Sequence record: NC_070869.1
DNA: 64,000 nt
Reading direction: 5' to 3' (one strand)
DNA from: Escherichia phage vB_EcoP_SP5M
Part shown: piece by piece, positions 31,018 through 32,566 of the stretch
How positions within the stretch are numbered: the stretch's first letter is position 1
Layout of the letters: each line of letters begins with the position of its first letter
Notes under the pieces: generated by a model
What the model was told of the DNA's origin: nothing
What the model saw: only the letters and a program-made list of their open reading frames with translations
The model's database searches: none
Translations under genes and position numbers: made by a program

Positions 31018-31353
31018 ATGTCCGAAGAAATCTCCAATGATATGAACACTCAGCTAATCCTGATTGCAGGATTCTCAGCGAGTGGTAAATCAGCATCACT
31101 GCGTAATATCCGGAACCAGGAACGCTGGTTGTATCTGAATACAGAAGCAGGTAAGCGTCTACCTTTCCGTAATAAGTTCAACACCTACAATATTGAAGAC
31201 CCATATCAGATTTGGGAAGCATTCGATGTTGCATCTCCAGGTGGTGAAATGGCAGATGATGTTGATGGTATCATTATCGACTCTGCTACCTTCATGATGG
31301 ACATGCTGGAATCCCAGTATGTATTGCCATCTGCTAATACCCAAAAGGCTTAA
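31018..31353 (+). CDS. Sak4-like (AAA_24/RecA-fold) ATPase, N-terminal fragment
   Basis: Walker A GFSASGKSAS, Walker B GIIIDSATF; ORF stops, gene resumes at 32123. Confidence 0.55.
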   Translation: MSEEISNDMNTQLILIAGFSASGKSASLRNIRNQERWLYLNTEAGKRLPFRNKFNTYNIEDPYQIWEAFDVASPGGEMADDVDGIIIDSATFMMDMLESQYVLPSANTQKA

Positions 31354-31485
31354 CTACTAAGGCCCGTTAGTCAGTAATGATTAATGATAACTGATTGAAT
31401 TCAGGGAAACCCCTAACGTAAAGACGAGGGCAATCCTGAGCCAAGACTTAATCTTTCTCCGGTTTTTATTAACGGAGTTACAAAC

Positions 31486-31977
31486 ATGAGTAAGAAAAGA
31501 TTCGGTAATGAATTGCATCCTCTGTATTACACATGGTTAACCATTAAACAGAGATGTGACAACCCTAAGCACGCTAGTTATAAAAACTATGGGGCTAGGG
31601 GGATAACTAGAGCAGAAGAGTTCTCTGACTTCAAAGTGTTTGCTGCCTATCTAGAATCATTAGATGGTTACGCAGACAGGGAGAGGCTGGGTCTTACTTT
31701 AGATAGAATAGATGGTTCACTTGGCTATGTGCCAGGAAATCTGAGATGGGCAACTAGAACAACTCAGGCCATTAATTCCAGAAAAAGAAGAACCAGTAAA
31801 GCTACCTACTTAGGAATAGGTTTAAACACCACTAAGAAAAAATGGTCAGCAAGAATCTGCAATGGTAATGAAAGAATCTTTGTAGGTAATTTTGATTCCG
31901 AGATTGAAGCTCTGGAAGCTAGAAATGCCTACATTATTGAGCATGGATTACCCCATGCCATTCAAAAGATTAAGTAA
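31486..31977 (+). CDS. HNH-AP2 homing endonuclease inserted within the Sak4-like ATPase gene
   Basis: LDRIDGSLGYVPGNLRWAT HNH motif; YLGIGLNTTKKKWSARI AP2-like motif. Confidence 0.7.
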   Translation: MSKKRFGNELHPLYYTWLTIKQRCDNPKHASYKNYGARGITRAEEFSDFKVFAAYLESLDGYADRERLGLTLDRIDGSLGYVPGNLRWATRTTQAINSRKRRTSKATYLGIGLNTTKKKWSARICNGNERIFVGNFDSEIEALEARNAYIIEHGLPHAIQKIK

Positions 31978-32122
31978 GGTGCAACGACTATCCAGTAATG
32001 GAGTAGGGCAGAAGCTAATGCTGCTCGAAGCGGTCAGCATCCTATCGTAATTAACGAGGATGAAGATATAGTCTGGACTGCATGGAAACATGCAGATGCA
32101 GGTAATGCTGCTGGGAGTGTAG

Positions 32123-32566
32123 TTGCGTACACTCTTGAACATATCGTGGGGAGACTTTGCACAGTTCTTTAAAATACTGCTGCAACAGAAAGTTGTTAAG
32201 TTTGGTAAGCCAGTAATTATTACTGCCCATGCCAAAGATGAACTCGACGAAGCTGCTGGTGTGATGAAAACATTCATCCCGGTTAAGGGTTCACTGAAGA
32301 ACAATGGCCTTGAGGCTTACTTCTCTACAGTGGTTTACGCAGAACGTGTAGACATTAAAGAACTGGAGAAGTATGGCAACAAGATGCTTGATATTACGGA
32401 AGAAGAACGTGACTTAGGTTATAAGCACGTATTCCAGACCCGTCCAACCAAGAAGTCTGTTGGTAAACGACTTCGTTCACCGATGGGTATGTTCGATAAG
32501 TCTCAGACTTATATTGATAATGATGCCCAAAAACTCTTAGACCATCTGGCTGAATACTACGCTTAA
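32123..32566 (+). CDS. Sak4-like ATPase, C-terminal fragment (TTG at ORF start, probably an exon/second half)
   Basis: KFGKPVIITAHAKDELDEAAG typical of Sak4 family C-terminal half. Confidence 0.55.
   Translation: MRTLLNISWGDFAQFFKILLQQKVVKFGKPVIITAHAKDELDEAAGVMKTFIPVKGSLKNNGLEAYFSTVVYAERVDIKELEKYGNKMLDITEEERDLGYKHVFQTRPTKKSVGKRLRSPMGMFDKSQTYIDNDAQKLLDHLAEYYA

Follow-up and report, generated by a model that had tools for sequence, protein, structure and literature searches.

We analysed a stretch of 64,000 nt from Escherichia phage vB_EcoP_SP5M (NC_070869.1), hereafter called the window, in which gene gp44 is interrupted by an insertion that carries an endonuclease open reading frame (ORF) and has the features of a group I intron. 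The window belongs to a Gamaleyavirus (G7C/N4-like E. coli podophage).

The interrupted gp44 locus

In agreement with an earlier reading made without database searches (the sequence-only reading), three ORFs are present at this locus: 31018..31353 (111 aa), 31486..31977 (163 aa) and 32123..32566 (147 aa, starting at TTG after an in-frame TAG). Both outer ORFs match PHROG 124 ('Sak4-like ssDNA annealing protein'), and they do so at adjacent positions (37-141, E 2e-20, and 143-262, E 3e-22, respectively). Neither of them passes Pfam AAA_24 (PF13479) singly, whereas their joined product does, with 43.3 bits (cut-off 27) and covering profile positions 5-192 of 195. Together these results strongly indicate that the outer ORFs are the halves of one protein, as had been proposed for the Walker A/B piece and the C-terminal piece. 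Given a Pfam score that spans the whole domain and the presence of Walker A and B motifs, gp44 is, as judged by its sequence, a predicted Sak4-like/AAA_24 recombination ATPase.

Alignment to the uninterrupted gp44 gene of phage G7C (753 nt), a check that the sequence-only reading had suggested, resulted in a single gap of exactly 796 nt that corresponds to positions 31351..32146, which fixes the exon borders between 31350 and 31351 and between 32146 and 32147. The joined segments 31018..31350 and 32147..32566 contain 250 codons, and their translation is identical to G7C gp44 at 250 of 250 residues. This indicates that exon 2 begins at TGG 32147. The TTG at 32123, which had been taken as the beginning of the C-terminal half, does open an ORF after an in-frame stop but is not the start of exon 2: it is located 24 nt inside the insertion, and the first eight codons of this ORF consist of intron RNA (the 3' strand of P9.2 and the tail). 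We rejected TTG 32123 as the start of exon 2, and likewise G32122 as the last base before the splice, since no intronless homologue has the eight codons that would be added. Similarly, an insertion between the halves had been recognised correctly, but its length is 796 nt instead of about 770 nt, and it has non-coding arms of 135 nt (31351..31485) and 169 nt (31978..32146) instead of about 130 and 145 nt.

GenBank and IMG/VR provided 23 loci without the intron, including G7C, in which the regions flanking the insertion are contiguous, down to 45-62% protein identity. The insertion site GC(N)/TGGGG, which codes for K-A/W-G-D, is conserved across these loci. The predicted spliced mRNA contains the junction CAAAAGGCU/UGGGGAGAC, and the predicted junction peptide of the 250-aa gp44 is ...SANTQKAWGDFAQFFK. 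As the intron begins with UAA, unspliced RNA would give the 111-aa fragment only.

On the basis of these borders and of the structural evidence given below, it is very probable that region 31351..32146 is a mobile, self-splicing IA-type group I intron present in gp44 of a G7C-like coliphage. Gene gp44 should consequently be annotated as one joined coding sequence, 31018..31350 plus 32147..32566, and not as two fragments labelled 'hypothetical' or 'Sak4-like', as is the case for phage PW8. The features of the region are collected in Table 1.

Table 1. Predicted features of the gp44 region, the gp39 insertion and related loci (window positions unless indicated otherwise; helices according to the hand-built 91-pair model)
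Feature	Position	Strand	Description
gp44 exon 1	31018..31350	+	111 codons; Walker A GFSASGKS, Walker B GIIIDS; ends CAA AAG GCU; from G7C alignment, PHROG 124
Group I intron	31351..32146	+	796 nt, IA-type; first codon UAA, last base G32146
gp44 exon 2	32147..32566	+	139 codons plus stop; starts with conserved UGG GGA GAC (W-G-D); from G7C alignment, PHROG 124
Homing endonuclease ORF	31486..31977	+	163 aa; residues ~1-100 PacI-like His-Me (HNH-type) domain, ~105-155 AP2 domain
P1	31347-51/31360-64	+	exon GGCU and intron U1 with internal guide AGGCC (31360..31364); U31350·G31361 wobble at 5' splice site
P2	31367-73/31378-84	+	GUAA loop
P3	31391-96/32032-37	+	5' strand in 5' core, 3' strand in 3' core
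P4	31401-05/31435-39	+	
P5	31411-14/31427-30	+	U-A to A-U in L027
P5a	31417-19/31424-26	+	
P6	31440-42/31978-80	+	
P6a	31446-55/31966-75	+	5' strand ACUUAAUCUU; closes over endonuclease ORF
Ribosome-binding site hairpin	31457-77	+	CUCCG(G)U...A(A)CGGAG; contains GGAG Shine-Dalgarno (31474..31477), 8 nt before endonuclease ATG
P7	31986-91/32068-73	+	GACUAU/AUAGUC
P7.1	31992-94/31999-32001	+	two compensatory pairs in L027
P7.2	32008-11/32021-24	+	pairing kept with different sequence in L034
P8/P8a	32038-62	+	local hairpin
J8/7		+	conserved joining segment AAGAUAUAGUC
P9	32078-95	+	GAAA loop
P9.1	32098-32111	+	
P9.2	32113-36	+	followed by tail GAACAUAUCG
Terminal G	G32146	+	intron 3' end
Primase gp43	28751..30961		N4 replication module neighbour
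SSB gp45	32607..33410		N4 replication module neighbour
RuvC-like gp46	33410..33964		N4 replication module neighbour
gp39 N-terminal fragment	23785..25749		654 aa
gp39 insertion HNH ORF	ATG 25724		canonical motif VNHLDGN...NLKW
gp39 C-terminal fragment	starts ATG 26229		preceded by GAGGAGG
Endonuclease-related loci, Vibrio phage 1.097.O	2501..2974 and 3731..4198 (of L005)		second HNH gene after SSB gene

Secondary structure of the insertion

A covariance-model search, likewise suggested by the sequence-only reading, supported its proposal of a group I intron between the two halves: region 31341..32095 matched Rfam RF00028 (group I intron) with 58.3 bits (gathering score 50, E 9.5e-14), and the match was repeated in a scan of the whole window. 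Since the middle part of the RF00028 alignment is not credible, for reasons given below, the structure of 91 pairs was built by hand. The U·G wobble of P1, within GGCU/AGGCC, is the same in all five distinct copies of the intron at this site. Also conserved in the intron copies are the terminal G, the J8/7 segment and the sequence of P7. P7.1 and P7.2 are located between P7 and the 3' strand of P3, the arrangement that defines subgroup IA in the Michel and Westhof scheme. The 3' strand of P6a consists of the last codons of the endonuclease gene and the first base of its stop codon; because P6a thus pairs with the 3' end of the ORF, the ORF is located in the P6a loop. The hairpin that follows the 5' strand of P6a covers the ribosome-binding site and probably limits translation of the endonuclease. 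No P10 helix is claimed; just a weak pairing of 3 bp could be drawn (exon-2 UGG with intron UAC...A).

The model was compared with an alignment of the five same-site copies from which the interior of the ORF had been removed. Standard pairing is retained in every one of the 455 cells of the 91 pairs, with no disruption. Twelve pairs changed on both sides and six on one side. Shuffled controls gave 2.5±1.4 double changes and none of the 500 reached 12; controls in which the partner strand was slid gave 0-1. The double changes are distributed over P5, P6a (three), the ribosome-binding site hairpin, P7.1 (two), P8a (three) and P9.2 (two), and P2 and P3 are also among the helices with changed pairs. 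The three compensatory pairs in P6a, found in the IMG/VR locus L027, occurred despite the coding function of this strand and changed the end of the endonuclease from KIK* to KHK*. The stem of the ribosome-binding site hairpin is conserved, with one compensatory change from U-A to C-G in L027. A minimum-free-energy fold of the core without the ORF independently recovered 78 of the 91 pairs, those missed being chiefly in the long-range helices P3 and P4.

A related intron, inserted in another gene and bearing an unrelated HNH ORF in the corresponding loop, is present in Vibrio phage 1.170.O (L034). A complementarity check showed all helices of the model to be preserved in this intron despite differences in sequence, which involve P3 (G-C to C-G), P5, P6, a 15-bp P6a, P7.2, P8, P9.1 and P9.2. 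The guide sequence matches the exon next to which this intron resides (GGGU/GCCC) and hence covaries with the exon. Together these results indicate that the ribozyme core is under structural selection.

The intron in L034 (984..3526) separates two ORFs annotated, as though unrelated, as 'coil containing protein' and 'aldolase-type TIM barrel protein'. Probably a single split gene has gone unrecognised there, and the two ORFs are its exons.

Endonuclease, mobility and distribution

The 163-aa ORF matches PHROG 374 ('HNH endonuclease') with E 2.6e-39 and contains the nuclease motif LDRID...Y81...NLRW...N97. No match was obtained in Pfam, even at E <= 10, or in NCBIfam, even at E <= 1, HNH models included, and phmmer against PDB sequences gave a weak AP2 match only. 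A large protein collection contains 344 homologues, most of them without a Pfam domain and a few with PF00847 (AP2), and 809 phage records contain the family according to tblastn. No Pfam model exists for its nuclease domain. Invariant in an alignment of 40 sequences are R23, Y32, Y35, G36, G39, R74, Y81, N85, Q94 and N97, and the corresponding motif reads tLDRIDn...Y.PgNLRWAT...Q..N. The family profile matched the AP2 domain of WRI1 with E 5.5e-7, which places the C-terminal domain in AP2/ERF (PF00847). The match of the profile to I-HmuI was weak (E 0.61) and placed LDRID...NLRW...N on VDHKD...NLRW...N. In this alignment Arg74 occupies the position of the catalytic His, and N85 and N97, candidates for the structural Asn and the metal-ligand Asn/His of β2 and the α-helix, are invariant in the 40 members and align with two Asn residues of I-HmuI.

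A confident AlphaFold2 model of the endonuclease was obtained, with a pLDDT of 95.3. The modelled fold appears to resemble that of PacI, a match in structure only: PacI was not among the matches at E <= 10 when PDB sequences were searched with the family profile. PacI (PDB 3m7k/3ldy) represents His-Me finger group 20, which lacks the catalytic His and uses instead a Tyr from the loop between two β-strands (PMC5714182). The invariant Tyr81 is located in the loop that matches the Tyr-bearing loop of PacI, and by analogy it could substitute for the missing His. We tentatively propose that the nuclease domain may be a PacI-type His-Me finger, fused to AP2, in which Arg74 has replaced the catalytic His and the loop residue Tyr81 is used, a proposal to which we give somewhat less credence than to its negation. 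If it is true, and if DNA is cut in this way, the protein would represent a homing endonuclease whose HNH mechanism depends on tyrosine; no homing enzyme characterised so far was found to have such a mechanism. Thus, the earlier designation of the ORF as an HNH + AP2 endonuclease holds for the AP2 domain and at the level of the fold, but not in the sense of a canonical HNH domain, as the catalytic His is replaced and no Pfam or NCBIfam HNH model matches. This family of His-less HNH + AP2 proteins is the only part of the system that might repay experimental work.

The same residues permit a different reading, according to which the intron splices but the ORF no longer encodes, or never encoded, a DNA endonuclease, the protein being instead a DNA- or RNA-binding one (maturase-like or a regulatory AP2 protein). 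Arg74 is invariant where I-HmuI has its catalytic His, HNH models of Pfam and NCBIfam do not recognise the protein, and inactivity is assumed for His-Me finger groups that have neither the His nor a Tyr in its place (PMC5714182). Against this, Tyr81 is invariant in exactly the loop concerned, as are N85 and N97, the family is widespread in phages in settings typical of homing endonucleases, both free-standing and intron-borne, and the intron bears the signature of recent lateral spread described below. We therefore consider a loss or lack of endonuclease function improbable.

One such setting is provided by the distant N4-like Vibrio phage 1.097.O (L005), in which a homologue with 45% identity is free-standing between an intact Sak4-like gene and the SSB gene. 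Related endonucleases are thus found in one and the same gene context whether or not an intron is present.

Region 30900..32700 is 97.8% identical over its full length to Escherichia phage vB_EcoP_PhAPEC7. For about 45 further G7C-like (Gamaleyavirus, N4-like) coliphages the match consists of two pieces, which together amount to 56% of the region. PhAPEC7 is also the best record for a 25-kb stretch, with about 94.5% identity and 92% coverage, which indicates that the window phage is a distinct member of Gamaleyavirus. Of some 50 Gamaleyavirus records four contain the intron, namely those of vB_EcoP_PhAPEC7 (NC_024790, LD35_gp48/gp49), RudolfBernhard_Bas96 (PQ850623), vB_EcoP_PW8 (PQ362703) and the window phage; it is absent from G7C, PhAPEC5 and about 45 others. 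In IMG/VR, an insertion occupies the same nucleotide position in 4 of 27 loci. That of L026 is nearly identical to the one in the window, whose identity to those of L027, L028 and L029, which are the same as each other, is 82%.

Comparison of the window with PW8 showed that 8.4% of the exon sites differ (synonymous divergence, dS, 0.46). The endonuclease genes of these phages have a dS of 0.07 and encode identical proteins, and 3 differences were counted over the 305 positions of the ribozyme arms. The intron is therefore much younger than the divergence of the flanking exons. This is the pattern expected of lateral transfer by homing and constitutes a clear signature of recent spread among G7C-like phages. 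Differences between the exons start within 6-9 nt of the junctions, and thus any co-conversion tracts must be short. Over the long branch to L027 the ratio of nonsynonymous to synonymous divergence (dN/dS) of the endonuclease gene is about 0.09, indicating that it is maintained as a protein by purifying selection. In PhAPEC7 (L002 2087..2350; alignment A1, column 731) a TGG-to-TAG change at the invariant Trp88 stops the endonuclease at codon 88, leaving an 87-codon remnant, the only part annotated in RefSeq, whereas the gene of the window is intact. As the ribozyme arms of PhAPEC7 differ from those of the window by 1 in 305 nt, this is a decaying endonuclease gene within an otherwise intact intron. 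Homing endonuclease genes usually decay after fixation of their intron, and the PhAPEC7 remnant fits this cycle.

Some further elements were observed in this phage group. Gamaleyavirus NAN33P5 (OZ035750), whose gp44 is intronless, contains at 58448..58567, elsewhere in its genome, a match of 120 nt (75.6%) to the P7-P9 core of the intron, which suggests that some other gene of this phage houses a group I intron of a different kind. In G7C, gp41 and the exonuclease gene gp42 are separated by gp41.1, a free-standing HNH endonuclease gene (L033 4037..6053). In the window the homologues of gp41 (27361..27831) and gp42 (27831..28811) abut, and region 27361..28811 is without a gp41.1 endonuclease gene. 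This is a further case of presence/absence variation of homing endonucleases in the replication module. Two tRNA genes are located on the + strand downstream of this module, at 35928..36000 and 36010..36083 (Rfam tRNA, 42.5 and 62.4 bits, respectively).

Alternative explanations and related systems

Several observations weigh against a mobile, self-splicing intron. The covariation comes mainly from one diverged same-site lineage (L027 and the identical L028 and L029) and one intron in another gene, and as the model was drawn while viewing the same sequences the covariation counts are partly circular. Helices P4, P7, P9 and P9.1 are invariant among the same-site copies and P7.2 varies only in L034; for P4, P7 and P9, which never vary, support comes from the conserved consensus. 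In the RF00028 alignment of the window the 5' strand of P7 is deleted and the ORF of about 500 nt is placed in P8 rather than in the P6a loop. We rejected this alignment: P8 exists as a local hairpin, P7 in its canonical form and P6a as a helix of 10 bp closing over the ORF, and these covary. At gathering score, Rfam gave no match for the introns of L027 (1210..2005) and L034 (1962..2976). Taken alone, the Rfam match is therefore fragile. The canonical general-base His at the end of β1 of HNH domains was not found in the endonuclease, all 40 family members having Arg74 instead. Finally, the DNA polymerase gene of the window is likewise split by an HNH insertion, and there the C-terminal fragment is preceded by a good Shine-Dalgarno sequence.

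The failure of Rfam with L027 has to be judged in view of the fact that its ribozyme arms are 85-89% identical to those of the window, yet score below the gathering score, and that all helices are kept in both L027 and L034. A missing Rfam match is consequently weak evidence against an ORF-bearing phage intron: detection of such introns by Rfam is fragile, and comparison with intronless alleles combined with covariation is more reliable.

The split polymerase gene leads to the possibility that the gp44 insertion no longer splices and that gp44 consists of two assembling polypeptides, a 111-aa Walker A/B piece that ends at UAA 31351 and a C-terminal piece with an internal start. The start of the latter might be inside the insertion, for instance at TTG 32123, which has GGGAG (32113..32117) 5 nt upstream. 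A precedent for such an arrangement exists, as the g39 insertion of the G7C-like phage 10Gb is not spliced and gives two polymerase fragments (bioRxiv 10.1101/542787). Both the two-piece arrangement and an internal start at such a site have, in our judgement, a very small probability. The GGGAG and the TTG are part of P9.2, a stem that compensatory changes have preserved, and hence resemble RNA structure more than a translation signal. Moreover, the whole ribozyme core is structurally selected (12 double changes, zero disruptions), the U·G pair, the terminal G and the sequences of P7 and J8/7 are intact, conservation reaches 99-100% in the non-coding arms as against differences of up to 8% in the exons, and, unlike the g39 case, the gp44 insertion is matched by an Rfam model. 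With an internal start inside a covarying helix and a catalytic core under structural selection, a split gene that does not splice is unlikely. That gp44 would be a dispensable pseudogene disrupted by a selfish insertion can virtually be dismissed: the function of N4 gp44 is poorly defined and in some records, such as that of PW8, the exon ORFs are annotated separately or partly, but the exons of the intron-bearing phages have a dN of 0.002-0.012 versus a dS of 0.15-0.46 and hence a very low dN/dS, neither exon contains a frameshift or stop in the five intron-bearing lineages, and the boundaries of the insertion are exact to the nucleotide.

Returning to the intron, we infer splicing itself, the activity of the endonuclease and the target of this enzyme, and the mechanism proposed here is derived from established group I intron chemistry. 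The gp44 region would be transcribed as a single pre-mRNA, in which the intron RNA would fold into the P1-P9.2 core. A free guanosine bound by P7 would attack after U31350, located in the U·G wobble of P1, and the released 3'-OH of exon 1 would then attack after the terminal G. Ligation of ...AAG GCU to UGG GGA... would restore the 250-aa gp44. In mixed infections the endonuclease would presumably cut intronless gp44 near ...AAAGCC/TGGGGAGAC..., its presumed target being located around the junction ...ACCCAGAAAGCC/TGGGGAGAC..., and repair would copy the intron in (homing).

The gp44 intron is already known and is an ordinary phage mobile element of textbook type. PhAPEC7, Bas96 and PW8 have it in the same gene, at the same site and with the same length, and compared with the window their ribozyme arms are 99-100% and their endonuclease genes 96.5-98.6% identical (DNA). 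The PhAPEC7 RefSeq record bears the note 'encoded in putative intron', and in the records of PhAPEC7 and Bas96 gp44 is a joined coding sequence; that of PW8 has exon 1 and the endonuclease only. In the literature on PhAPEC7, Sak4 and N4-like phages with group I introns we found no paper that analyses the gp44 intron. What is added here are the exact splice sites, a structure supported by covariation, the location of the ORF in the P6a loop, the recent lateral spread and the His-less endonuclease. The element represents one more homing intron within a conserved motif of a replication/recombination gene.

Related insertions are present in other genes of the same phage group. The group I intron in g16 (RNAP2 subunit A) of the G7C-like phages Sz33 and N4G2 has been shown to splice by reverse-transcription PCR, and neither this insertion nor that in g39 of 10Gb is reported to have a significant Rfam match (bioRxiv 10.1101/542787), whereas the gp44 intron does. 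The N4-like Vibrio phage pVa5 has a group I intron in td (PMC5746245). Like the gp44 intron, these insertions are about 800 nt long, carry an endonuclease and are located in essential genes; the genes differ from gp44.

The polymerase gene of the window (N4 gp39 homologue, 23785..27059) contains, relative to G7C gp39, an insertion of about 702 nt at about 25614..26315. Rfam gave no intron match for it in the scan of the whole window, and it has no room for a ribozyme. By analogy, it looks like the non-spliced g39 insertion of 10Gb, which gives a two-piece polymerase (bioRxiv 10.1101/542787).

As to the endonuclease, homing enzymes that combine HNH and AP2 domains are attributed to Magnani et al. 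2004, as cited in PMC5714182. PacI has no AP2 domain, possesses two zinc motifs and is a homodimeric restriction enzyme, whereas the intron endonuclease has an AP2 domain.

By BLAST, 40-60 nt of the P3-P6 core are 85-95% identical to many introns of Staphylococcus, Bacillus, Ralstonia and Vibrio phages. From the P7.1/P7.2 hallmark we take the gp44 intron to belong to subgroup IA, and presumably it resembles the introns of Twort and of T4-type phages. The orf142 introns of Staphylococcus phage Twort (I-TwoI) and the DNA polymerase intron of Bacillus phage SPO1 (I-HmuI) are, we assume, also of the IA type with HNH endonucleases. With these the gp44 intron would share the P7.1/P7.2 core, GNRA loops, an ORF in a peripheral loop, its presence in a conserved replication/recombination gene and a stop right after the 5' splice site. 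It would differ from them, as we understand these systems, in residing in a gene for a Sak4-like ATPase and in encoding a His-less PacI-like domain fused to AP2 instead of a canonical HNH domain with helix-turn-helix (NUMOD) modules.

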